DNA of 11,133 bases from a virus (lineage: Duplodnaviria > Heunggongvirae > Uroviricota > Caudoviricetes), in the IMG/VR virus record IMGVR_UViG_3300044591_001876, positions 1 to 11,133 of that record. The stretch is one strand, 5' to 3'. The notes beneath the pieces are model-generated. The model did not search any database and was not told where the DNA came from. It saw only the letters and a list, made by a program, of their open reading frames with translations. The stretch's first letter is position 1. Every line of letters begins with the position of its first letter. Both the position numbers and the translations under genes were made by a program. Of this stretch, positions 1 through 11,133 are shown in pieces.

Positions 1-57
1 GCTCAGAAATTAAACTTTATGAAAAAAACATCGAAAGCAAAACTTATGCTTGTTTAA
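1..57 (+). CDS. gp33: 3' end of late-transcription coactivator gp33 (partial; ...AQKLNFMKKTSKAKLMLV*)
   Basis: Frame 1 is open from the window start to TAA at 55-57. The peptide resembles the cyanophage gp33 C-terminus (recalled as LNFLKxTSRAxLP). Position upstream of gp32 fits. Only 18 codons are visible. Confidence 0.6.
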   Translation, partial: AQKLNFMKKTSKAKLMLV

Positions 58-59
58 TT

Positions 60-401
60 ATGGGAAACTTTTTTAAATCTGAAATGGTGAGAGGGGACCT
101 TCAAGAAATGGCAGAACTTCAACAGTTTTGTATGAGATCGATGGTTGCCTTTGCTGTCTTAAATAAAGAAAAGAAACTTCAATATTTTGAAGTGATGGAA
201 CAACTGATTGAAAAACAGAAAATTTTTCATGCTAGAATTTGTTTGAGCGATGATCCAGAAGCAATGGAGATGGCGGAAAGTATGAAGCAGGCTGCTGTAA
301 TGCTTGGTGCCACCCCAAATCAAAGCATGGGTTCCATGTTCGATGACCTTCTGGAAAAAGTCCGTGTCATGAAAGAACAACTAGAGGTTCAGGAGGATTG
401 A
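60..401 (+). CDS. DUF1825-like conserved cyanophage/cyanobacterial protein (113 aa)
   Basis: Contains FFxSExVR..L.E..ELQ near the N-terminus and LIEKQKIFHARICLSDDPEA. This matches the small helical protein that typically precedes gp32 in T4-like cyanophages. Confidence 0.7.
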   Translation: MGNFFKSEMVRGDLQEMAELQQFCMRSMVAFAVLNKEKKLQYFEVMEQLIEKQKIFHARICLSDDPEAMEMAESMKQAAVMLGATPNQSMGSMFDDLLEKVRVMKEQLEVQED

Positions 402-426
402 CGCTACCCTGAACCTGTGCTATGAT
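398..426 (+). promoter_or_regulatory. sigma70-type (early) promoter for gp32
   Basis: -35 TTGACG at 398-403, a 17-nt spacer (404-420) and -10 TATGAT at 421-426. The -35 box overlaps the TGA stop of the upstream gene. Confidence 0.8.
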
Positions 427-480
427 GTCTAGGTGATACAGCGTCACACAAGCCAAATCCAATTATCCAAGGAAATCCGT

Positions 481-1362
481 ATGTCTTTTGCTGATCTTAA
501 GCGTAAGTCCCAGAGCAATTTTGAGTTTCTTCAGAAGGAACTTGAAAAGTCCAGCACTCAATCAGGTGCCGACGAGAGGCTCTGGAAGCCCGAACTTGAC
601 GCTTCTGGTAACGGCTATGCCGTTATTCGTTTTCTGCCTGCTCCTGAAGGGGAGTCAGTGCCGTGGGCTAAACTTTATACTCATGCCTTCAAAGGCACTG
701 GTGGATGGTTGATTGATAACTGTCCCACAACAAACGGTGATAAGTGTCCCGTTTGTGCTGGCAATACTAAACTGTGGAACAGTGGTCATGAATCTGATAA
801 AGCAGTTGCTCGTGATCGTAAGCGTAAACTGTCTTACTACAGCAACATCTATGTTGTGAATGATCCTAAGAATCCTGACAACAATGGTAAGGTGTTCTTG
901 TTTAAGTATGGTAAGAAGATTCATGATAAGATTCTTGCTGCTATGCAACCTGAGTTTCAAGATGAAACTCCTGTGAACGTCTTTGACTTCTGGGAAGGCG
1001 CCAACTTCAAGATTAAAATCAAGACCGTTGGTGGTTACTGGAACTACGATGCTTCTGAGTTTTCTTCGCCAGCAGTGCTCAGTTCTGATGATGATGAAAT
1101 GGAAGCTATCTGGAAACAAGCATATTCGTTGGAAGCATTTGTTGCTCCTAGTGAGTTCAAATCTTATGAAGATCTTGAGACTCGAATGAATAGTGTTCTT
1201 GGTGCTGCTCCTGCTACTCGTCAGGCTCAGCAAGAAGAAGAGCAAGATCCTGCTCCTGTTGCTGCTTCAACTCGGCAACGTGATGTTGATCTTCCTTCGT
1301 TCAAGTCAGACGATGACGATGATGCTCTGAGCTACTTCGCTCGTCTTGCTGAAGAAGATTGA
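481..1362 (+). CDS. gp32: single-stranded DNA-binding protein gp32 (293 aa from ATG 481)
   Basis: MSFADLK start, DERLWKP, GNGYAVIRFLP, Zn ligands H/C/C/C (HAFK...NCPTT...KCPVC), RKRKLSYYSNIYVV, FKYGKKI and an acidic tail DDDDDALSYFARLAEED. ATG 481 follows AAGGA (469-473). The ORF-track GTG at 433 lies at about the predicted transcription start and is unlikely. Confidence 0.97.
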   Translation: MSFADLKRKSQSNFEFLQKELEKSSTQSGADERLWKPELDASGNGYAVIRFLPAPEGESVPWAKLYTHAFKGTGGWLIDNCPTTNGDKCPVCAGNTKLWNSGHESDKAVARDRKRKLSYYSNIYVVNDPKNPDNNGKVFLFKYGKKIHDKILAAMQPEFQDETPVNVFDFWEGANFKIKIKTVGGYWNYDASEFSSPAVLSSDDDEMEAIWKQAYSLEAFVAPSEFKSYEDLETRMNSVLGAAPATRQAQQEEEQDPAPVAASTRQRDVDLPSFKSDDDDDALSYFARLAEED

Positions 1363-1369
1363 TAAAAGT

Positions 1370-1395
1370 AAAGGGGGCTTACGCCCCCTTTTTTT
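1370..1395. terminator. bidirectional intrinsic terminator between convergent gp32 and gp53
   Basis: Stem GGGGGC (1373-1378), loop TTAC, GCCCCC (1383-1388), then T7 (1389-1395) on +. On - it reads GGGGGC-GTAA-GCCCCC-TTTACTTTTA, with a GNRA tetraloop. The gp53 TAA overlaps the T tract. Confidence 0.92.
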
Positions 1396-2731
1396 ATATG
1401 CCGGTTTTCTTTAATCTATTATTAATAAAATCACTTGACTTGCCATAAAGATTTGTCTTTCTAAAATCAGATAAAAAGGCATCTAAGTATGTTGGTTTGA
1501 GTAAATAAATTTCTCTCTTTTTTTCATTCTGTTCTTCTTCGTATTCAAATACATATACTGGTCTACATATTTGAACCCCATTTATTTCTACTGTAGTAGT
1601 GCCATTAAAATATTTGATTCCATTTCCGGTTTTTCTTTTCCAATTTTCTCCATCGTACTTCCAGTAAACTCCATCAATTAAATACGACGTTGGGCTTAAT
1701 TCTACCACTTCATAATCTAATGGAGTGGTTTTTTGGTATGAACCAATAAATTCTATACTACGTATTCCATAATGATCGTTTCCTGGACCACTACTATTTG
1801 CTTGATATAATCTAAAGTAAGTATTATTTTGCTTGGCTCCTTGAGGTATATTAACCGAGTATAGATTCAATTCATTTCCAGCATTTCCGGCTCCATCGTC
1901 TGTTGTTGGTACAATAATACCCATATTAATCCAACCAGATGGGTTAGTAGAACCGACTTGATATTGTATTCTTAGTTCTTCTTGACCAGCAATGTCTGGT
2001 GTTTCTCCACCATTAAGATCGTTTCCACGAATTACTAATCCAGTTATTGTATTCAAATTTGTAGCATCAATTGGTTTTAATGTTGCCCATCTTTCGCCAC
2101 TTTTAATCTCACCAAATTTTAGATGATTGCCAATACCAAAGCCACCATCATCTCCTGCTCCAGTTCCGTTTGTAGCAATGTATGTACCATTAAAATCTAA
2201 AATGTTTCCTGGAATTCTTGTATCTATAATTTTAGATATTGGTATTGTTTCTACCGTAGGTTCTGTTTGTGGTAACGTATCGATAACAAATGTCTCTTCT
2301 GAGTTATAAAAATTTTCATCTACAATTGTGCCACCTTTCAATATTACTTGACCAAACATTTGTGTTTGTTCTTTATCATCGATAACTTTATAATGTTTTA
2401 TTGTTGAATAAGGATCGTCGTATGTAGATTCTAAAAATTTTCTTAGGTCATTCTGACTTAATGGTAAATCAAATAATGGATTTATCATATTGTTTGTCAA
2501 AGCAATAACCCAATCAAAGAAAGGATTTCCATATGCTTTTTCTGCTATAGTATCTAAACGCTCTCCTTCTTCTATAGAATACTTTTTAAAGTATACTGCA
2601 TAAGAAAATACATCTGGGTTAACTTGATATCTTCTGAAGAAATTTTTAGCTACAACAAAATCAGATTCAGAGAATGGATACTGAATTGGTTTTTTATCGT
2701 ACTCGATATTAGGAATGAATGAGAAATACAT
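1394..2731 (-). CDS. gp53: baseplate wedge subunit gp53, enlarged by an internal accessory domain (445 aa)
   Basis: N-terminus MYFSFIPNIEY...KNFFRR, LysM-like YSIEEGERLDTIAEKAYGNPFFDWVIALTNN, and C-terminal PVYVFEYEEEQNEKKREIYLLKP. Position after gp48 fits. Confidence 0.92.
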   Translation of the reverse strand: MYFSFIPNIEYDKKPIQYPFSESDFVVAKNFFRRYQVNPDVFSYAVYFKKYSIEEGERLDTIAEKAYGNPFFDWVIALTNNMINPLFDLPLSQNDLRKFLESTYDDPYSTIKHYKVIDDKEQTQMFGQVILKGGTIVDENFYNSEETFVIDTLPQTEPTVETIPISKIIDTRIPGNILDFNGTYIATNGTGAGDDGGFGIGNHLKFGEIKSGERWATLKPIDATNLNTITGLVIRGNDLNGGETPDIAGQEELRIQYQVGSTNPSGWINMGIIVPTTDDGAGNAGNELNLYSVNIPQGAKQNNTYFRLYQANSSGPGNDHYGIRSIEFIGSYQKTTPLDYEVVELSPTSYLIDGVYWKYDGENWKRKTGNGIKYFNGTTTVEINGVQICRPVYVFEYEEEQNEKKREIYLLKPTYLDAFLSDFRKTNLYGKSSDFINNRLKKTGI

Positions 2732-2732
2732 T

Positions 2733-3845
2733 TTAGATACCCTCTCCTGTTTCTGTATCTACTTCGCCAGCAAATACTAACTTTGATTCTAGGAATGATA
2801 TGGTTAATTCTGTTGCCACTGGAGAACCGTCTCCCATTGTGGCGTATGCCCCAGCAGCAGTGTAGTTAATACTTACGTCAGTAATACCACACAATTTATA
2901 TTTTGGTAAGAATGGATGAATGCCAGATCCTTTCATAAAAAGAACTTGACAAAGATCTGGAATCGTTATTAGATTTGCTGTTTCTTGAGAAGCGCCAAAA
3001 ATTGCTTGACCTCCAAATTTAGGAAGCATTGCTTTTTTAAATATATTACAAATTTGTTTTATATCTTTAGCTTCTTTTCCTGTCCGAGGAACCAGTTTAA
3101 ATTTCAAACTAAAGTTTCTTAGTTTGGGTGCTTCGTAAGCAAGTTCTACGTTAGGGTTTAAGATTGTTCCTGTAACTGTTCCTAAGGCTTGATTTAAATT
3201 AATATTTGCTCCAGCAACAGCATTTATTCCAGAAATAAGAGCATTAAACGTAGCTGCTTTTACCCCACCCATAGCTGAGCTAGTTCCTGCTTGAACTAAA
3301 GCACTCCAATCTTTTTGGTTATTGATAGATCCAGCAACTCCAAGCATACCAGCAGCCGCTGCTCCAAACCCAGCTCCATTCCATCCAGCCCCAAATTGAG
3401 TTTGAATATCTTCTGGCATATAAAGAATAACTGATTTTAAACCAGAAGGATTTTTATATGATCTATCACTGGAATCTTGGTAGTTAGAATATCCCCATGG
3501 GTTACTGGGAGATTTTGATGCTGAATTTGCATCTGCTCTATTTGGAGTATCTCTTCCTCCTCCAAAAGGTGGAGCGTAGCTATAAAAACTAAACAATACA
3601 TAATCACTATCTGCTTCGATTGCCGCTGGGTCAGAAGGATATCTTACAGAACTGCTTCGATTATTTGGTAGTTGTATGTTTAATTTAATTGGTTCTTCTT
3701 TTGTTGGGTTGCTGCCTCCTCCCGATTTATTAGCAGGATTGTTTTCACTTTTTGCCCACACTGCTTCCGGCACATACTTAGTACCATCCCAAAATCCAGG
3801 AACTGTGCCAGCGGCGTTTTCTTTTTTTTCTCCTAACTGTGGCAT
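2733..3845 (-). CDS. gp48: baseplate tail-tube cap gp48 (370 aa)
   Basis: YP...DYVLFSF, VILYMPEDI, NPNVELAYEAPKLRNFSLKFKLVPR, KKAMLP, PDLCQV, KLCGITDVSINYT, PVATELTISFLE. The ATG overlaps the gp2 stop (TAATG). Confidence 0.9.
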   Translation of the reverse strand: MPQLGEKKENAAGTVPGFWDGTKYVPEAVWAKSENNPANKSGGGSNPTKEEPIKLNIQLPNNRSSSVRYPSDPAAIEADSDYVLFSFYSYAPPFGGGRDTPNRADANSASKSPSNPWGYSNYQDSSDRSYKNPSGLKSVILYMPEDIQTQFGAGWNGAGFGAAAAGMLGVAGSINNQKDWSALVQAGTSSAMGGVKAATFNALISGINAVAGANINLNQALGTVTGTILNPNVELAYEAPKLRNFSLKFKLVPRTGKEAKDIKQICNIFKKAMLPKFGGQAIFGASQETANLITIPDLCQVLFMKGSGIHPFLPKYKLCGITDVSINYTAAGAYATMGDGSPVATELTISFLESKLVFAGEVDTETGEGI

Positions 3846-4708
3846 TACTTGACCCTCTCTATGTCTTTCCTGTTAGTTCCTTTTATGATCCTTGTGCCTT
3901 TGATACGATCATTCCAGTGTTGGTTAATCTCTTCCCAAACATATTCTTTTGGGTATTCAATTTTTCCATCACCTTTCATTAGCACGAAATCTTCTACAGG
4001 AAGAGCAGAAGCAGACACCCATTCTTCTTTCGCTAAATCTAAGAACAAACTTTTACATCTTTTATAAAGATATTTATGAATGATTACTTTGGGAATATCT
4101 ATCTGACCTTTCTCCAATTTATTCACAACGATTAATCTTTTCTTTGGTTCTAGATAATGTAAATTAGCTCCCCAAAATTCTCCACCAGATACTTTCATTA
4201 CATATAATAAAGGATACTTATCATAGTACGGAAGGTCTGGTGTTTCTGCTTTATATTCGAAAAAACATAAGTGACCAGGAAATAATTTACGACGATTTAC
4301 ATTCTGATCTTGGTTAACCAACGCTCCAATTGAATCAAATTTTTCCTGCTCATTCATACGAGAGGGCTCTGTTTGAACACTAGCACTTAACGTTTTAAGT
4401 TTTGCTTTGTACCATAGTAAATTTTTTGCTTCTCCCTCAGTTTCTTCTTTTATTTTTTCAAATATCGTTAATCGCCTTTGTTTTTTTCCTGCTTGTTTAA
4501 ATCCCTCAGTTTCACTTACCGCTTGTGCTAACTCATTCATATCTTTGTATGAAGAGTAACGTTTTATGCCATACTTAGAAGCAAGAGCACGTATTTGATC
4601 ACGAGTGTAATTACTTAATGATGGTAACTCATGACCGCTCAAATAAGACCATCTATCAATAGCATCTTTAGCATATGATTTTGGCTTTAAATTATTCTTA
4701 GCTGCCAT
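3845..4708 (-). CDS. gp2: DNA end-protector protein gp2 with an N-terminal extension (287 aa)
   Basis: PGHLCFFEYKAE..LPYYDKYPL, FWGANLHYL, IHKYL and EW..A..LPVEDF are gp2 motifs. RBS AGGAG lies at 4715-4719 on the - strand. Confidence 0.88.
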   Translation of the reverse strand: MAAKNNLKPKSYAKDAIDRWSYLSGHELPSLSNYTRDQIRALASKYGIKRYSSYKDMNELAQAVSETEGFKQAGKKQRRLTIFEKIKEETEGEAKNLLWYKAKLKTLSASVQTEPSRMNEQEKFDSIGALVNQDQNVNRRKLFPGHLCFFEYKAETPDLPYYDKYPLLYVMKVSGGEFWGANLHYLEPKKRLIVVNKLEKGQIDIPKVIIHKYLYKRCKSLFLDLAKEEWVSASALPVEDFVLMKGDGKIEYPKEYVWEEINQHWNDRIKGTRIIKGTNRKDIERVK

Positions 4709-4709
4709 G

Positions 4710-5147
4710 TTATACTCCTAGATGATCTTCTGTGAGAATTAAAAACTTCATCTGTCTATCTTCACAGAAGTCTTCTGCTGCTGCCCACTTGGCACGGTTC
4801 TTCATGTAGGTTAGGACTTCTCTTTTCCAAGCAGCAGTTTTTCTTTTTGGTTTCTCGACTGGACCAGCAACTTGTTTTTTTGGTTTAACTTCAATCAAAT
4901 ACTTATTAATATTTCCTTCTTTATTTTTAACTTTGATGTAGAAGTCTGGAAAGTATCTATGAACTCTACCATCAGTAGGACAACGATAGGGAATAATTAC
5001 TTCTTCACTTCCCCACTCTACAATACTATCGTTGCCATCACAAAACACCATAAACTTCCGCTCCCACATAGAACGGTAGATAATTCTTGTAGGGTTTCCT
5101 CTATATTTTTTTGGATTCTTTGGTTTGTAGATTCCAGAATAAGCCAT
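4710..5147 (-). CDS. gp4: head completion nuclease gp4 (145 aa from ATG 5147)
   Basis: MAYSGIYKPKNPKKYRGNP..IIYRSMWERKFM..CD, WGSEE..IPY, HRYFPDF, LIEVKPKKQ (PD-(D/E)xK-type) and NRAKW.AA. The start is moved from the ORF-track 5234 to the MAYSG codon, which has GGAGG (5161-5165) upstream. Confidence 0.95.
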   Translation of the reverse strand: MAYSGIYKPKNPKKYRGNPTRIIYRSMWERKFMVFCDGNDSIVEWGSEEVIIPYRCPTDGRVHRYFPDFYIKVKNKEGNINKYLIEVKPKKQVAGPVEKPKRKTAAWKREVLTYMKNRAKWAAAEDFCEDRQMKFLILTEDHLGV

Positions 5148-5176
5148 AAATAAATATATCCCTCCGACTATATTTA
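5146..5176. promoter_or_regulatory. pair of oppositely oriented T4-type late promoters in the gp4/gp54 intergenic space
   Basis: The + strand has ATAAATA at 5146-5152 and 5150-5156, facing gp54. The - strand has TAAATA at 5171-5176, facing gp4. The T4 gp55-dependent consensus is TATAAATA. Confidence 0.75.
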
Positions 5177-5178
5177 GA

Positions 5179-5886
5179 GTGGCAAAAGGATCAATAGACA
5201 ACTTCATATCAGCCATAGCTAAGAATGGCGGCATGGCAATGTCGAATGGCTATGATGTTGAATTTGATTTTCGTGGAAAAGTTGATCTAGAAAAATATAT
5301 AAAAACTATTGGAGTAGATTTGCCTGCTAAAAGTGATAGTGGGGAAGCCGGAGCATTAATTAATTTGTTTTGTGACGAAGCACAACTACCGAATATTTCC
5401 GCTGCTACTGGGCAAATTACTGGAAGGTATTTGGGAGAAGGTACTATCAATTATCCTCATACTAGAATAGTAAGTGACTTCAATCTTTCGTGGATGTGTG
5501 ATGCTAACATGATCCCATTTAAATTTTTAAACGCTTGGCACGAGTATATTTTTGGGCAAGATAAAATTGAAAATCGAGTTGGAACCGATAGATTTTTGAG
5601 AGATGCTAAAGCAAATGACGCCAAAACAAAACTAATTAACAGAACAAATCGCCTTAGATATCCTGATCAATATCAAACTACGTTAAGAATATCAAAAGCA
5701 GAACGAGGAGCTAATGCTCCAAATGAAAGAGTTTCTTTAGTTTGTGTGCTTGAAAATGTATATCCATATTCCATAGATGCTGTTCCTATGTCTTATGGAT
5801 CATCACAAATAACAAGAGTGAGTGCTAGCTTTTATTATACTCGCCACACATATTACAACTACGACATCCGTAATTATAGAGGATAA
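5179..5886 (+). CDS. gp54: baseplate tail-tube initiator gp54 (gp19-like fold; 235 aa, GTG start)
   Basis: FCDEAQLP, YPHTR...FNLSWMCD, FLNAW..YI, YPDQY...I and LENVYPYSIDAVPMSYG..QI.RV...FYY fit the gp19/gp54 family. It precedes gp26. Confidence 0.82.
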   Translation: MAKGSIDNFISAIAKNGGMAMSNGYDVEFDFRGKVDLEKYIKTIGVDLPAKSDSGEAGALINLFCDEAQLPNISAATGQITGRYLGEGTINYPHTRIVSDFNLSWMCDANMIPFKFLNAWHEYIFGQDKIENRVGTDRFLRDAKANDAKTKLINRTNRLRYPDQYQTTLRISKAERGANAPNERVSLVCVLENVYPYSIDAVPMSYGSSQITRVSASFYYTRHTYYNYDIRNYRG

Positions 5887-5889
5887 ATA
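5883..5889 (+). promoter_or_regulatory. T4-type late promoter for gp26
   Basis: ATAAATA overlaps the gp54 TAA stop and lies 25 nt upstream of the gp26 ATG. Confidence 0.7.
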
Positions 5890-5914
5890 ATTACACGAAT
5901 TGAAATAAAGTTTT

Positions 5915-6628
5915 ATGGCATTACCAAAAATTGGAATTCCTACTTACGAATTAGAGTTGCCATCCACAGGCAAAACAATTAAGTACAGACCTTTTGTAGT
6001 GAAGGAAGAAAAGGTTTTACTACTGGCATTAGAATCTGAAGATGAAAAAGAGATTAAAAATGCCGTCAAAGATCTGATTAAAAATTGTGTTCAAACTAGG
6101 ATTAAAGTTGATGACTTGCCTAGCTTTGATTTGGAATATATCTTTTTACGAATTCGTGCTGCTTCGGTTGGAGAAGAAATTAGTATGATTGTCACTTGTC
6201 AAGATGACAATAAGACTCAAGTTGAAGTAACCATTAATTTGAATGAAGTTAATGTGTTTAAACCTGAAGGACACACTAATAAAATTATGCTTGATGATAT
6301 CACAGGCATTGTTTTGAATTATCCTGGCATGGATAGATTTATTGATTCTGAATTTTTGAATAAAGATATTAAAACTGATGAAGTAATTAATTTTATTGCT
6401 GATTCGGTTGATCAAATTTTTAACAGTGAAGAGGTGTGGGATTCTTCTACAACTTCTAAAAAAGAAATGAGAGAGTTTATAGAAGGTCTTACTGCTAAAC
6501 AATTTGAACCATTACAAAAATTCTATGAAACTATGCCTAGGCTAATTCATAAATTCAAAGTAATTAATCCAAACACTGGCGAAGAATCCGAATATACAAT
6601 TGAGGGACTACAGAATTTTTTCGTATAG
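5915..6628 (+). CDS. gp26: baseplate hub subunit/assembly protein gp26 (237 aa)
   Basis: MALPK...PTYELELPSTGK.IKYRPF.VKEEK.LL.A.ES, FDLEYIFLRIRA.SVGE, F.ETMP.L and C-terminal EGLQNFF. Confidence 0.93.
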   Translation: MALPKIGIPTYELELPSTGKTIKYRPFVVKEEKVLLLALESEDEKEIKNAVKDLIKNCVQTRIKVDDLPSFDLEYIFLRIRAASVGEEISMIVTCQDDNKTQVEVTINLNEVNVFKPEGHTNKIMLDDITGIVLNYPGMDRFIDSEFLNKDIKTDEVINFIADSVDQIFNSEEVWDSSTTSKKEMREFIEGLTAKQFEPLQKFYETMPRLIHKFKVINPNTGEESEYTIEGLQNFFV

Positions 6629-6655
6629 CACTCTTCCAGAATAGCCTGGAGGGGT
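6602..6655 (+). promoter_or_regulatory. putative programmed -1 ribosomal frameshift cassette (internal SD, slippery heptamer, stimulatory hairpin)
   Basis: GAGGG at 6602-6606. T_TTT_TTC at 6616-6622 is phased X_XXY_YYZ in the gp26 frame. After a 7-nt spacer, a 10-bp stem pairs 6630-6639 with 6646-6655 (two G-U pairs) around a 6-nt loop AATAGC. Confidence 0.72.
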
Positions 6656-6804
6656 ACTTTAGAACTAATTTTGCTTTGATTCAGTATCATAAATACTCTT
6701 TAGCAGAAGTAGAAAATCTTATTCCTTGGGAAAGAGAAGTGTATACATCTTTGTTAATTCAACATCTTAAGGAAGAGGAAGCAAAGAGAGCAGCTAATCA
6801 ATGA
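6625..6804 (+). CDS. gp51: baseplate hub assembly chaperone gp51-like frame with no ATG; probably expressed as the C-terminus of a gp26-gp51 frameshift fusion
   Basis: Absent from the ORF track. It translates as IALFQNSLEGYFRTNFALIQYHKYSLAEVENLIPWEREVYTSLLIQHLKEEEAKRAANQ*, with the gp51 signature NF.L.QYHKYSL.E.EN..PWER.VY. Its TGA (6802-6804) overlaps the next ATG (6801-6803). The frame is closed upstream by TGA at 6601-6603. Confidence 0.88.
   Translation: MALFQNSLEGYFRTNFALIQYHKYSLAEVENLIPWEREVYTSLLIQHLKEEEAKRAANQ
6689..6695 (+). promoter_or_regulatory. possible internal late promoter within the gp51 frame
   Basis: ATAAATA is formed by the His-Lys-Tyr codons (cat aaa tac), 105 nt upstream of the ATG at 6801. 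Confidence 0.4.
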
Positions 6805-9800
6805 TACCCGAGAAGGCGATAAAACCAATAATAAAAAACGGCAGGGACAATACTGAAATTGCTGTTGGAACTCTTATTGCCTATGGTGTTTTTCCTCACA
6901 CAACTGAGGGCATAGAAAAAGCTAAGAAGCTAATTGAGGAATCTGAAAATTGGTTGGTGCCATCACAACTACCAGATTATTATGATGGTATTGATAGTGA
7001 TTTAATTGTTGGTAGAGAGACTCCAGGTATTTTATCAATAAGAAGAAAATTAAAAGAGTTTTATAAAATCTCTGCTGGCACAGAAGAATTTATAGATACA
7101 ACTGTATACACTCCAGCAGATAAATTTGTTGATGATGGTAAAGAATTTGCTGTAAAAATAGAAACTGATCTTGAAGATGCTTTAGAAAAAACATCTGACG
7201 AGATCATGGATTCTATTGATGAGATTCTTAGACAAGATCAGGAAAAGTTTGAAGAGTTTAAAAGAAAACAAGAAGAAGAATTAAAGAAAAAAATTGAGAA
7301 ACTTAATACACCAGAAAGAGTTTCTCAAGAACTTACAATAAAAATTCCTCCAGCTCATTATATACAGGGAACTGCTGGTAGATGGCAACCAGAATTTGAA
7401 AATGATATTGATCATGCCGTATACTTTGCTGGCAAATCTTCATTACCGAAAGGAGCAAAGCAAAGAGAAGTTCTTGATTGGTTAAAAAGTTTAGGCTTAA
7501 CGTTTGAACAAATACATAACCACCGTGAGAAAGTATTAGATCAAATTCGAGAAACTATTTCTCTTCCTGGTGTGGAAGAAGAGTATCCATATGTTTATAT
7601 TGATGCTGTCGATCAAGATTTTGTACTGGAAGATGATGAGGAAGACTATGAAGATCTTGAAGAAGATTTTGATGGATTAGATGATCTATTAAATGAGGTT
7701 AGAAATGAAGAACAAATTTCCGAAAAAGAAGTAGCTGATAATATTGAAGAAGAAATCATCGATGCTGCCGAGGATGAAGAAGATCCTATGGCTGATGCTG
7801 ATGTAGACATACAAGCCATATTGGATGGGGATGAAAACGAAACAAAAAGTATTACTGAAAAATTAACTGACACAATAAACAAACCTAAGAAAGAATCTTC
7901 TTACGCTAGCAACAAAAAAATTCTGGATTCTATTACCGTAAACTTTGGAAGAATACAAGAAACATTAAACATTGTAAATCGTAATTTAGAAGAACAGAAT
8001 ACATTAATAAGAGCAAACATTGATACACAACTTGCTGTCGGTGATTTAATAAGTAATCAGACAGATCTTTTGGCATCTAAATTTGATTTGATATTGGAAC
8101 ATTTTGAAAGACAGTTACAACATTCTGAAGAACTTGATGAAGCAGAAAAAAGAAAGGCGAATGAATCTAAATTAGAAGCACAGCGTGATGCTGCTGGGTC
8201 TTCTGACTTTCGAGATCTTACACAAGGTGGTGGTAAATCAAAAAGGCAATCTAAAATTGGATTATATTATAGAAGAAAACTTCTCAGAAAATTATACAGA
8301 AAAACTCCAAAAAAATTAAGATCCTTAAGGACTAAAGCAAGAAAACTTCAAAGGGTTCCTGACAAATTAAAAACTTCTGCTGCTAATAGAGTTACCCAAA
8401 TGTTGCCTAAGCGAGCAGGTAAAGCTGTTGGTAATTTGAGATCAGTAAAATCTGTTGGAACAAGACTTCCTGGAGTAAGACAAGCATTTGCTGCTTGGGA
8501 ATATTCTGATAGAAAGGCTGCCGGACAATCCGATGTTCAAGCGTTGGCTGGTGTTGGTGCTGGCCTAGGTGGGGCTGCCGCTGGGGGTGCTGCTGGAGCT
8601 GCTACAGGGGCAGCGATAGGTGCTGCTTTAGGATTACCTTTCTTTGGTATTGGAGCTGCTCCTGGAGCTGCTATAGGCTCTGCCATTGGTGGAATTCTTG
8701 GGCTTGTTGGTGGATTTTTTGCTGGAAATGCCGCTTCCGATGCTGCCGATAAGCTTACTGGAGCAGATCAAATTGATAATCAGTATGAAACTGGTGGATT
8801 AACTAAACCAGGAACGGCAATACTTCATGGTACTGAAGCAATTATTAATCGTGATGCTATTGATATGTCACCATTGAATACTCTTGGTGGCATAATGATT
8901 GCTTCGACCACAGAGTATATTAATTCTGCTGGTGCTGTAGCTGCTCCCATAGCACCTTCATTGAGAGGTGTATCAACACAAATGGCGAGACAATATGATG
9001 TTCCTGCTACTTTAGCTCAAACCAATGTTGGTGGTACTTTGCCTAAGATAGATAATGAATTGAAAAAAGTTAGGGAAAAAAGAACAGGTGGTGATCAAGA
9101 AGAATTCTCTGGTCAAGAAAAACAATTATTAGAAACAACAGATGAAGATAATTTTGCTGAAAAATTATTAAAGATGATAGATCCAGATGAAAAATTCCTT
9201 AGTATACTAAAGAATATTAATAACAGAAACCCTTTGTTGCCCCCAGAAGATTATGATGGCACAGGAATTGATGGAGATTTGGAAGGAAATATAGTAAACC
9301 CAATGGAAGGTGGGGTTATGGAAGATTATCCTGGTGCTAAGTTTGGTGCTTCTAGAGATGGAGGAAAGAGAAAACATAAAGGTAGGGATCTTGTTGGTCC
9401 TCCTGGAATGAAAGTTGTATCTGCTTTGCCAGGAACTGTCACTGGTATAATTGATGTTGGCAAATTACCTGGAGGTGGGTGGAGCAAAGGAATATATGTG
9501 AAACATTCTAATGGTATGGAAACCCGCTATCTACACGTACATCCATCTGTAAAAGTTGGCGATCAAGTTAAAGCTGGACAACAAATTGCTAAAATTACAG
9601 CAATGGATGATATTAGTTCTGTACCACACCTACACTTTGAAGTTATTGTGAATGGGCGACATGTTGATCCAGAACCAATTGTGAGAGGATCTTTAAAGAT
9701 GAGTGATATAGCGGCAGGAAAAGTTCCTGGGCTTTCTGTGAAAGCACCTAAAAATCCAGCTGAAATTGAAAACCATAGTGGAACTGAAGTTTCTGATAAA

Positions 9801-10268
9801 ACTCCGCCGTCATCTCCACCATCTTCTATGGCAACTCCTCAGCAAGTATCTTCTACTTCTACAATTGCTGAGAAATTAGTAGCACAAACATTAGAATCCG
9901 ATGGAAGCATGGATGGCATGGTTGCTGCTACGTATGGAGCAGGAGTTCCTAAAACTCCGAGATGGATGCAAGAAATAGAAAGGCAATATAATGAAGTTAA
10001 AGATAAGCCATTTAGTCCAGGAACACCGAAGCCAGGAAGAGGAATGGGAGATACGTGGCTCCCTAAGGCGTCATTGGATCAAGGTAGTCAAATTGCTAGT
10101 TTATCTAGATACGAACAAGAATCTGAAAGCAATACGGTATTAATTAATAATCAATCTTCGCCAATGCCAGCAATGCCTTCTTCCGGAGGAACAGAAATTA
10201 TTCAAATGGGTGGAGTTAGTTCTTCTGAGTTATTAAAAAGTTTGATGTTACAAAGATTAAACGCCTGA
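6801..10268 (+). CDS. tape-measure/baseplate-hub (gp29-like) virion protein with a C-terminal-half M23 peptidase domain (1155 aa)
   Basis: It follows gp26/gp51 and contains coiled-coil and low-complexity stretches and a Gly/Ala hydrophobic zipper (8541-8727). M23 motifs are HKGRD (9375-9389), YLHV and HLH (9627-9635). The tail is P/S-rich and ends NNQ.SPMP. The M23 call is stronger than the gp29 label. Confidence 0.72.
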   Translation: MIPEKAIKPIIKNGRDNTEIAVGTLIAYGVFPHTTEGIEKAKKLIEESENWLVPSQLPDYYDGIDSDLIVGRETPGILSIRRKLKEFYKISAGTEEFIDTTVYTPADKFVDDGKEFAVKIETDLEDALEKTSDEIMDSIDEILRQDQEKFEEFKRKQEEELKKKIEKLNTPERVSQELTIKIPPAHYIQGTAGRWQPEFENDIDHAVYFAGKSSLPKGAKQREVLDWLKSLGLTFEQIHNHREKVLDQIRETISLPGVEEEYPYVYIDAVDQDFVLEDDEEDYEDLEEDFDGLDDLLNEVRNEEQISEKEVADNIEEEIIDAAEDEEDPMADADVDIQAILDGDENETKSITEKLTDTINKPKKESSYASNKKILDSITVNFGRIQETLNIVNRNLEEQNTLIRANIDTQLAVGDLISNQTDLLASKFDLILEHFERQLQHSEELDEAEKRKANESKLEAQRDAAGSSDFRDLTQGGGKSKRQSKIGLYYRRKLLRKLYRKTPKKLRSLRTKARKLQRVPDKLKTSAANRVTQMLPKRAGKAVGNLRSVKSVGTRLPGVRQAFAAWEYSDRKAAGQSDVQALAGVGAGLGGAAAGGAAGAATGAAIGAALGLPFFGIGAAPGAAIGSAIGGILGLVGGFFAGNAASDAADKLTGADQIDNQYETGGLTKPGTAILHGTEAIINRDAIDMSPLNTLGGIMIASTTEYINSAGAVAAPIAPSLRGVSTQMARQYDVPATLAQTNVGGTLPKIDNELKKVREKRTGGDQEEFSGQEKQLLETTDEDNFAEKLLKMIDPDEKFLSILKNINNRNPLLPPEDYDGTGIDGDLEGNIVNPMEGGVMEDYPGAKFGASRDGGKRKHKGRDLVGPPGMKVVSALPGTVTGIIDVGKLPGGGWSKGIYVKHSNGMETRYLHVHPSVKVGDQVKAGQQIAKITAMDDISSVPHLHFEVIVNGRHVDPEPIVRGSLKMSDIAAGKVPGLSVKAPKNPAEIENHSGTEVSDKTPPSSPPSSMATPQQVSSTSTIAEKLVAQTLESDGSMDGMVAATYGAGVPKTPRWMQEIERQYNEVKDKPFSPGTPKPGRGMGDTWLPKASLDQGSQIASLSRYEQESESNTVLINNQSSPMPAMPSSGGTEIIQMGGVSSSELLKSLMLQRLNA

Positions 10269-10274
10269 TGAGAA

Positions 10275-10293
10275 ATAAATACTGTGATAGGAG
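10275..10293 (+). promoter_or_regulatory. T4-type late promoter and RBS for the final ORF
   Basis: ATAAATA at 10275-10281 and AGGAG at 10289-10293, 10 nt before ATG 10304. Confidence 0.78.
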
Positions 10294-10303
10294 AATAGTA
10301 TAA

Positions 10304-11133
10304 ATGTCGGCAGGCACACAGGGTTTTACAGATACTCGAAAAGATACTAATCACATTGGTGCTGTTATTAGTAAGGTGCTTGAGGCAAGAAAACTTGCTG
10401 AGCAAGAAAGGGAATACGCTGAATCAGTAGCAGAAAAATATCAAACCTCACTAGAAGAATCTGGAATACAACGAGGATATTTTTTCAAGAAAGCATTAAG
10501 ATGGAAGTTTGGCGGGGAATTTAAAGCTAAGAAACAAGCACAGTTACAAACTTGGAAATCTCGTGCTGACTTATTTAAATCTGCTGCCACTGGCAAATCA
10601 GGCAGGAATAAACTAAACAAGTTTGAAAGATCACAAGCGATCTTTGATATGTTTAAATCTGGTGATAAGCCAAAAACATTTAGAGATAAATTTAAACTAT
10701 TATACGAAGGATTTGTAGACGATCCGATGACTAGACCACAAAGTCATTGGGTTAAGCCAGGAGCAAGAAAGAAAATACAAAAAGCAACTTCCAGAAGTAA
10801 TCGTGTAAGTAAAGAAGATATTTTAAATTCTCTTTCTGCTATTACTGATTCAATTGAGAGAGTTGCTGAATCTATATCAGAAAAAAATAAAGTAATTGCT
10901 GATCAGATGGTTCATTCATCTGTCTTACAAGGCATGATGCACCAGCAGCTTAAGACAAGTAATGATTCTTTAGAAGATAAATTACAAAAAATTGTTGATG
11001 TTTTATCTAATCAAACTCAATACCAAAAACAATCTGTAGATAAAATTGAAGCAAAATCTGCTGAAAATAAATTAGAAAGACAAAAAGATGCTGCTAGTAT
11101 AGTTAATTTTGATGACCTCACTACTAAAGAAGA
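10304..11133 (+). CDS. second tape-measure/hub-like virion protein, partial (>276 aa; paralog of 6801-10268)
   Basis: Absent from the ORF track because it runs off the window. Translated by hand, it is open from MSAGTQGFTDTRKDTNHIGAVISKVLEARKLAEQER to ...KDAASIVNFDDLTTKE. It has a late promoter and RBS, and shares a coiled-coil module with the upstream protein. Confidence 0.8.
   Translation, partial: MSAGTQGFTDTRKDTNHIGAVISKVLEARKLAEQEREYAESVAEKYQTSLEESGIQRGYFFKKALRWKFGGEFKAKKQAQLQTWKSRADLFKSAATGKSGRNKLNKFERSQAIFDMFKSGDKPKTFRDKFKLLYEGFVDDPMTRPQSHWVKPGARKKIQKATSRSNRVSKEDILNSLSAITDSIERVAESISEKNKVIADQMVHSSVLQGMMHQQLKTSNDSLEDKLQKIVDVLSNQTQYQKQSVDKIEAKSAENKLERQKDAASIVNFDDLTTKE

Follow-up and report, generated by a model that had tools for sequence, protein, structure and literature searches.

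Comparative evidence for a programmed -1 frameshift predicted to fuse gp26 and gp51 in T4-like cyanophages

Introduction

How does a T4-like cyanophage make gp51 when the reading frame for that protein has no ATG? The question is raised by the junction of gp26 and gp51 in IMGVR_UViG_3300044591_001876, an IMG/VR virus record of a T4-like cyanophage from lake-water metagenomes. The DNA analysed here, hereafter the window, covers positions 1 to 11,133 of that record (11,133 nucleotides) and holds late structural genes. A preliminary description of the window, made from its sequence, had predicted that a -1 slip near the end of gp26 carries translation into the gp51-like frame. We consider it very probable, judging from the comparison of related phages, that gp26 is subject to a programmed -1 frameshift and would thereby give both a short gp26 and a long gp26-gp51 protein.

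A review of the T4 tail counts gp26 and gp51 among the hub assembly chaperones; the hub requires both for its assembly, and the particle contains no gp51 (PMC3004832). The gp51 proteins of cyanophages and marine vibriophages lack the first ~200 residues of T4 gp51, a difference that was reported without an explanation (Sullivan et al. 2010, PMC3037559). The preliminary description knew of no account of a slip between these genes in T4-like cyanophages, and our full-text literature searches, which had subscription journals outside their coverage, likewise found no published description of one between gp26 and gp51.

Results

The slippery heptamer is invariant at cyanophage gp26 junctions

We collected 80 related loci from viral contigs and a dozen cyanophage GenBank records. 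The comparison set consisted of 85 cyanophage sequences, including the window, with 78 unique junctions and gp26 proteins down to 59% identity; junction counts given below refer to this set. In the window, the gp26 gene ends in AAT TTT TTC GTA TAG, which places the heptamer T_TTT_TTC (6616-6622) in the X_XXY_YYZ phase of gp26, as had been read before. UUU and UUC are both phenylalanine codons, and re-pairing of both tRNAs is possible at this site.

The preliminary description had suggested looking for the T6C heptamer in relatives. It is identical in 84 of the 85 sequences and in all 78 unique junctions, where the heptamer and the G that follows it have zero entropy. On the gp26 tree, the three wobble sites within the heptamer have undergone 0 parsimony changes, compared with 6-26 changes at each of 20 upstream wobble sites. 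The codon before the T run is always AAT, AGT or TCT, meaning that the encoded amino acid varies and the final T is constant. Phe-Phe pairs elsewhere in the gp26 genes (n = 35) are spelled TTC-TTT in 20 cases, TTT-TTT in 9, TTC-TTC in 5 and TTT-TTC in only 1. The zero-frame stop codon of gp26 is TAG in 67 junctions, TAA in 9 and TGA in 2. By this comparison, the heptamer is under selection at the nucleotide level.

An assembly error in the T run was considered and rejected: 84 independent sequences and the contigs of four independent sequencing runs agree, and none of them has the indel that the preliminary description had named as a possible refutation. The junction stretch was found in DNA contigs only, from lake or waste water, and in no RNA run. 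The sole related contig without the expected gp26 end is IMGVR_UViG_3300002040_000003 (L062), in which the gp26 frame breaks earlier; its match is one base short (710 nt), probably owing to an assembly indel.

The -1 frame evolves as protein from the slip site onward

The -1 frame of the window is open from 6604 to a TGA at 6802-6804. As claimed earlier, it follows a TGA at 6601-6603, contains no methionine and reads ALIQYH, and its stop codon overlaps the ATG of the next gene (6801) as ATGA (6801-6804). The product sizes given in the preliminary description were recovered by computation: 236 residues of gp26 and 60 of the -1 frame make a predicted fusion of 296 amino acids, beside a gp26 of 237 amino acids. 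Around the predicted fusion junction, a tryptic peptide ending in ...GLQNFFR would be followed by one starting with IALFQNSLEGYFR.

Across the 78 junctions, variation is greatest at position 3 of zero-frame codons as far as the heptamer. From the first block beyond it, the maximum shifts to position 3 of -1-frame codons, and the three-base period of variation in the -1 frame persists across all 180 nt. Conservation of the peptide R-I/V-A-L/V-F-Q/H-N-S-L-E-G-Y-Y begins with the first codon past the slip, and the -1 peptide is matched by phrog_634, 'baseplate hub assembly catalyst', with an E-value of 1.3e-25. Upstream of the heptamer, the -1 frame is closed by a stop codon in 78/78 junctions, at a distance of 3-66 nt (mostly 15 nt), and no ATG, GTG or TTG lies between that stop and the heptamer in any of them. 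Downstream, the window has no ATG at all in this frame, and its first 18 codons include no GTG or TTG either. The first -1-frame ATG is at +54 or +57 in 55 junctions and at +96 in one, and is absent in five, including the window. The expectation that relatives would lack a gp51 ATG was borne out for 61 of the 78 unique junctions, which have none before residue 19 of the -1 peptide, and failed for the others, which are weighed below. The pattern of change points to translation of the -1 frame from the heptamer onward, without a start codon of its own.

T4 gp51 contains a gp26-type domain and the same tail in one frame

The gp26 protein of the window matches the Pfam family T4_baseplate (PF12322) with an E-value of 2.3e-69 over residues 9-236, covering profile positions 2-218 of 219. 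It also matches positions 5-232 of phrog_150 (E-value 4.5e-75), and the -1 peptide falls on positions 238-281 of the same profile, directly after gp26. In T4, residues 1-201 of gp51 match PF12322 end to end (E-value 3.9e-52), gp26 likewise gives a full match, and the cyanophage -1 peptide aligns to the ~48 C-terminal residues of gp51, with homology over residues 210-239. When a profile was built from virtual fusions, its alignment to T4 gp51 residues 125-244 ran unbroken across the junction. Like T4 gp51, the predicted fusion has a PF12322 domain first and then a tail of ~50 amino acids that carries the motif ..Y..N..L....YSL..I..-.P.ER; in the window, a gp51-type C-terminal tail after the PF12322 domain is found only in the -1 frame. 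By these alignments, T4 gp51 is a gp26-type domain and the same C-terminal tail in a single frame, which is a stronger argument than those of the preliminary description.

PF12322 genes number two in T4 and one in each of four complete genomes, those of S-RSM4, S-PM2, Vibrio Va3 and Sinorhizobium phiM7. The heptamer is absent from the gp26 genes of T4 (which ends TTC TTT GAG...) and of Acinetobacter Berthold (which has no T run), both of them two-gene phages. Taken together, the PF12322 counts and the heptamer survey indicate that one-gene phages have the heptamer and the -1 tail, and that two-gene phages have neither. T4 gp26 (208 amino acids) and gp51 (249 amino acids) have ~20% identity and no slippery site. 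They were correctly described before as separate genes, with the caveat that they are divergently transcribed paralogues and do not adjoin each other. In the cyanophage, by contrast, one gene would give both forms, with an identical N-terminal 236 amino acids.

The signal recurs in other phages and is inconsistently annotated

T_TTT_TTC, followed by a gp26 stop codon within 0-2 codons and a gp51-like -1 frame, was found in eight further lineages: S-CRM01, Vibrio Va3 (KVP40-like), Stenotrophomonas BUCT608, Aeromonas AsFcp_4, Delftia PhiW-14, Pseudomonas Astolliot, Agrobacterium OLIVR6 and Xanthomonas X1. Some of the phages that carry the heptamer have GC-rich genomes, yet GAT TTT TTC is kept. 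Sinorhizobium phiM7 has T_TTT_TTT at the end of gp26. GenBank records give gp51 as 37, 44, 57 or 60 amino acids or do not annotate it, and none of the records inspected has a joined gp26-gp51 coding sequence.

Two members of the Ackermannviridae, Vibrio phage VAP7 (L108) and Serratia phage 3M (L109), have a gp51-like -1 peptide after a gp26 homologue. Their T run is only GTTTTTC or GGTTTTC, a non-canonical heptamer, and the gp51-like frame of Serratia phage 3M has no early start and is unannotated.

A hairpin and a Shine-Dalgarno-like element flank the heptamer

Both candidate stimulators of the preliminary description are present in the window. The 10-bp hairpin (arms 6630-6639 and 6646-6655, 6-nt loop), which follows the heptamer after a 7-nt spacer, is the minimum-energy fold at -15.5 kcal/mol, with a z-score of -2.19 (7 of 200 shuffles fold as well). 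Of the ten stem pairs, eight can form in 64 or more of the 78 junctions, and the pair +15/+38 is C-G in 41 junctions, G-C in 20 and A-U in 4. S-PM2 has a different hairpin, of 14 bp, at the same distance (z-score -6.8), and S-CRM01 has another at its junction (z-score -2.9). A search of Rfam over 6450-6850 gave no family match. Other lake or wastewater metagenomes carry natural variants at two positions of the hairpin's 3' arm. Neither breaks its pair: 6646 C>T turns G-C into G-U, and 6651 G>A turns U-G into U-A.

The Shine-Dalgarno (SD)-like GAGGG ends 9 nt before the heptamer. Exactly this motif is present in 47 of the 78 unique junctions, and 62 of them have an SD-like 4-mer 6-18 nt before the heptamer, compared with 10% of background windows. 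GAGGG also encodes a conserved Glu-Gly.

A possible chaperone fold and the neighbouring genes

An AlphaFold (AF2) model of gp26 (predicted local distance difference test score, pLDDT, 91.6) was compared with 48,161 Protein Data Bank (PDB) representatives. The best three matches all fall on model residues 1-90: YqbN 3klu (Z 7.0), the HK97 tail assembly chaperone 2ob9 (Z 6.7) and 3fgx (Z 6.3), with the next-best at Z 4.8 and 3.7. We take 3klu, from Bacillus subtilis, to be an XkdN-type tail assembly chaperone of the skin prophage. Foldseek gave 2ob9 a probability of 0.77 but an E-value of 0.6, and with the whole gp26 model it found no PDB match at E <= 0.001. A 'Phage tail assembly protein' of the AlphaFold Database aligns to the model with a template modelling score of 0.55 and a root-mean-square deviation of 2.4 Å. 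As evidence for a chaperone, this modelled N-domain fold is supportive only. The GenBank record of Acinetobacter Berthold names gp26, gp51 and gp28 'tape measure protein assembly chaperone'.

The genes in the window are ordered gp32, gp53, gp48, gp2, gp4, a tail-tube-family gene, gp26 and a gene for a 1155-amino-acid protein with an M23 peptidase domain (Table 1). The tail-tube-family gene matches Pfam Phage_TTP_2 (E-value 2.2e-53) and phrog_45, 'tail tube', and the gene at the same position is labelled 'baseplate-tail tube initiator' in the Vibrio Va3, Aeromonas AsFcp_4 and Agrobacterium OLIVR6 records. With the listed start, GTG 5179, this open reading frame (ORF) overlaps the 5' end of gp4 (4710-5234, opposite strand) by 56 nt. 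Its true start is probably further downstream, because the gene is annotated as shorter in relatives (552-801 nt).

The 1155-amino-acid protein matches Pfam Peptidase_M23 at residues 858-957 (E-value 3.5e-20). Its PDB matches are to M23 domains only, and the Atlas gave weak leads from it to tape-measure clusters. Pfam T4_Tape_measure was found only in T4 among five genomes. The preliminary description had proposed that gp26 and gp26-51 act as a tape-measure chaperone pair of the lambda G/GT kind. The gp26 N-domain fold, the T4 literature and the Berthold record speak for this proposal, whereas the next gene is a candidate tape measure; we infer both the chaperone function and the tape-measure identity of that gene. 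The gene evolves very fast: only five close relatives were found, two of which are ~290 amino acids longer over the same span. At the same position, other cyanophages have at least six unrelated N-terminal modules, behind which the coiled-coil motif IL..I..NL..IQ..L..I...L..QN.LI..N recurs.

Table 1. Features at and around the gp26-gp51 junction, in positions of the window.
Feature	Position	Strand	Basis
Upstream neighbour, tail-tube-family protein; T4 gp54-like tube initiator by position	5179-5886	+	Pfam, phrog
gp26 gene, zero frame, 237 amino acids, short product; putative T4 gp26-type hub/tail assembly chaperone	5915-6628	+	ORF list, translation
SD-like GAGGG, possible upstream stimulator	6602-6606	+	Read from sequence
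Slippery heptamer T_TTT_TTC, X_XXY_YYZ phase of gp26	6616-6622	+	Conservation among relatives
Zero-frame gp26 stop TAG, one codon past the heptamer	6626-6628	+	Position fixed in 78/78 junctions
-1 frame extension, 60 amino acids (RIALFQ...ANQ) and stop TGA 6802-6804; 'gp51' part of the predicted fusion	6622-6804	+	Translation, phrog, codon-phase switch
Hairpin, 10 bp, 6-nt loop; candidate downstream stimulator	6630-6655	+	Fold prediction, pairing in relatives
Downstream neighbour, 1155 amino acids, coiled coil, Gly/Ala-rich hydrophobic stretch and M23 domain; candidate tape-measure-like protein	6801-10268	+	Pfam, sequence reading

The T4-type late promoter core ATAAATA is found 22-33 nt before three gene starts: those of gp26 (5883-5889), the ORF at 10304 (10275-10281) and the tail-tube-family gene (5146-5156). 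A further copy lies inside the gp51 frame at 6689-6695, on His-Lys-Tyr codons and ~106 nt before the 1155-amino-acid gene, where the wobble sites have only 2 changes compared with 10-18 nearby. This copy may be an internal late promoter that overlaps coding sequence. The total number of ATAAATA copies in the window shows no excess over chance.

Discussion

Weighing the frameshift against other explanations

The invariant heptamer, the hairpin retained downstream and the scarcity of early ATG codons in the -1 frame support the frameshift interpretation put forward in the preliminary description. Comparison of the relatives carries the slip signal, coding in the -1 frame, the lack of a start codon and the homology to T4 gp51; the ribosomal nature of the slippage, its efficiency and the chaperone mechanism are what we infer from it. 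Several observations weigh against the frameshift and the role proposed for its products. An ATG is present within the first 9 codons of the -1 frame in 17 of the 78 junctions, and several distant lineages have TGATG or TAATG overlaps; such phages could also make a free, small gp51. The SD-like motif is missing in 16 of the 78 junctions, and folding found no significant downstream hairpin in PhiW-14, BUCT608 or P-TIM68. The covariation anticipated for the hairpin is suggestive in the aligned junctions: a downstream hairpin is kept in most cyanophages, but only two to three independent compensatory events could be placed on the tree, which leaves the comparison underpowered, and the stem overlaps conserved codons. 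As regards function, the structural matches to chaperones have Z-scores below 8, a range in which a merely common arrangement is possible, and the 1155-amino-acid protein has no BLASTP similarity to T4 gp29.

The same fusion protein could be made by recoding at the RNA level, if RNA polymerase added a U on the T6 run. The site is indeed a homopolymer run, which in Sinorhizobium phiM7 reaches seven T, but in all 78 unique cyanophage junctions the final C keeps the run short, and six T is shorter than the runs known for efficient polymerase slippage. The run also lies in the exact X_XXY_YYZ phase, and its flanks (an SD-like motif ending 9 nt before the heptamer and a hairpin after a 7-nt spacer) have the layout of a ribosomal frameshift site; we therefore regard transcriptional slippage as unlikely. 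A separate gp51 of ~40-60 amino acids, translated by re-initiation at a non-AUG codon after the gp26 stop or from the TTG at 6676 in the window, would fit the GenBank records that annotate a separate gp51 of 37-60 amino acids and those relatives with an ATG no more than 9 codons past the gp26 stop or with TGATG or TAATG overlaps. Yet the first 18 -1-frame codons of the window, which lack ATG, GTG and TTG, are under strong purifying selection, and the codon at +3 is ATA, GTA or GTG, so that the relatives share no non-canonical start. Annotated starts vary between records, several of which annotate nothing, and independent translation leaves unexplained both the invariant synonymous sites of the heptamer and the in-frame gp26 domain of T4 gp51. 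On this evidence, independent translation is very unlikely. It would be extremely unlikely for the -1 frame to be untranslated, with 6622-6800 kept for a role at the RNA or DNA level (for example in a leader or promoter of the following gene) and the T run kept only for a terminal Phe-Phe. Phe-Phe is also found near the C-terminus of T4 gp26, and the late-promoter-like ATAAATA at 6689-6695 has reduced synonymous change; against this, the -1 frame has a clean three-base period over 180 nt and its peptide has protein homologues that include the C-terminus of T4 gp51, while conservation of Phe-Phe would fix neither the codon spelling nor the wobble T before the run.

Predicted mechanism and comparison with known systems

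Under a programmed -1 frameshift, the majority of ribosomes would read TTT TTC GTA and halt at the TAG at 6626-6628, releasing the 237-amino-acid gp26. In a minority, the two tRNA-Phe on U_UUU_UUC (6616-6622) would move one base back and both re-pair with UUU, after which the slipped ribosomes would read 60 further codons in the -1 frame to the TGA at 6802-6804 and produce the 296-amino-acid gp26-gp51. The hairpin 7 nt downstream probably raises the rate of slippage, as may the SD-like GAGGG that lies 9 nt upstream in most relatives, and perhaps the nearby zero-frame stop codon. If the parallel with lambda G/GT and P2 E/E+E' holds, a single assembly chaperone of the tail hub or tape-measure complex would be made in an abundant and a rare form, and the extra C-terminal tail of the fusion would provide a second contact.

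In long-tailed phages, a -1 frameshift of the tail assembly chaperone genes is reportedly conserved, with lambda gpG/gpGT as the example, according to work by Xu, Hendrix and Duda said to date from 2004. Like lambda G/GT, the cyanophage locus would use one start for a short and a C-terminally extended product, with a -1 slip close to where the short ORF ends. The order of genes, a tail-tube-family gene, then gp26/gp26-51, then a very large gene, resembles lambda V-G/GT-H, and solved tail assembly chaperones are the best structural matches of the gp26 N-domain. The locus differs in that gp26 is ~100 amino acids longer than typical chaperones, with an extra C-terminal domain, in that the extension is only 60 amino acids and the next gene only a candidate tape measure, and in having no sequence similarity to the G/GT families.

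Phage P2 is likewise said, in a study attributed to Christie et al. and the year 2002, to have a frameshift on a T run (T7G) in its E/E+E' tail chaperone genes. P2 and the cyanophage share a contractile tail, a -1 slip on a U run and a chaperone gene (here putative) upstream of the tape measure (here a candidate), whereas the protein family differs and the site in the window is T6C. The arrangement of an upstream SD element, a heptamer and a downstream hairpin at similar spacings (9 nt and 7 nt here) is that of Escherichia coli dnaX. There, unlike in the window, the heptamer is A_AAA_AAG and the -1 frame ends almost at once, so that slippage gives the shorter product; in the cyanophage it would give the longer one, and the SD-like element is not universal among the relatives. 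A -1 slip in tail chaperone genes is a well-known kind of system, to which the predicted case from the T4 superfamily would be a new addition.

Implications for the T4 superfamily

It seems reasonably likely that the rule of a short and a long tail chaperone extends to the T4 superfamily. Most T4-like lineages (cyanophages, KVP40-like vibriophages and rhizobial, Stenotrophomonas, Delftia, Aeromonas, Pseudomonas and Xanthomonas phages) would then use gp26 and gp26-51 as equivalents of G and GT by means of a UUUUUUC slip, whereas T4 and its close relatives would have hard-wired the pair as the paralogues 26 and 51. If true, this would explain both the apparent exception of T4 and the 'truncated' look of cyanophage gp51: the ~200 residues missing from the gp51 of cyanophages and vibriophages would be supplied by gp26 through the slip. 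Annotations that omit gp51 or give it an arbitrary start would be corrected in hundreds of phage genomes, and the known recoding signals would gain a U_UUU_UUC site that is deeply conserved and found in phages of cyanobacterial and proteobacterial hosts. For T4 itself, it offers a hypothesis for two poorly understood genes, in which gp26 and gp51 would be the abundant and the rare form of one chaperone, like lambda G and GT.

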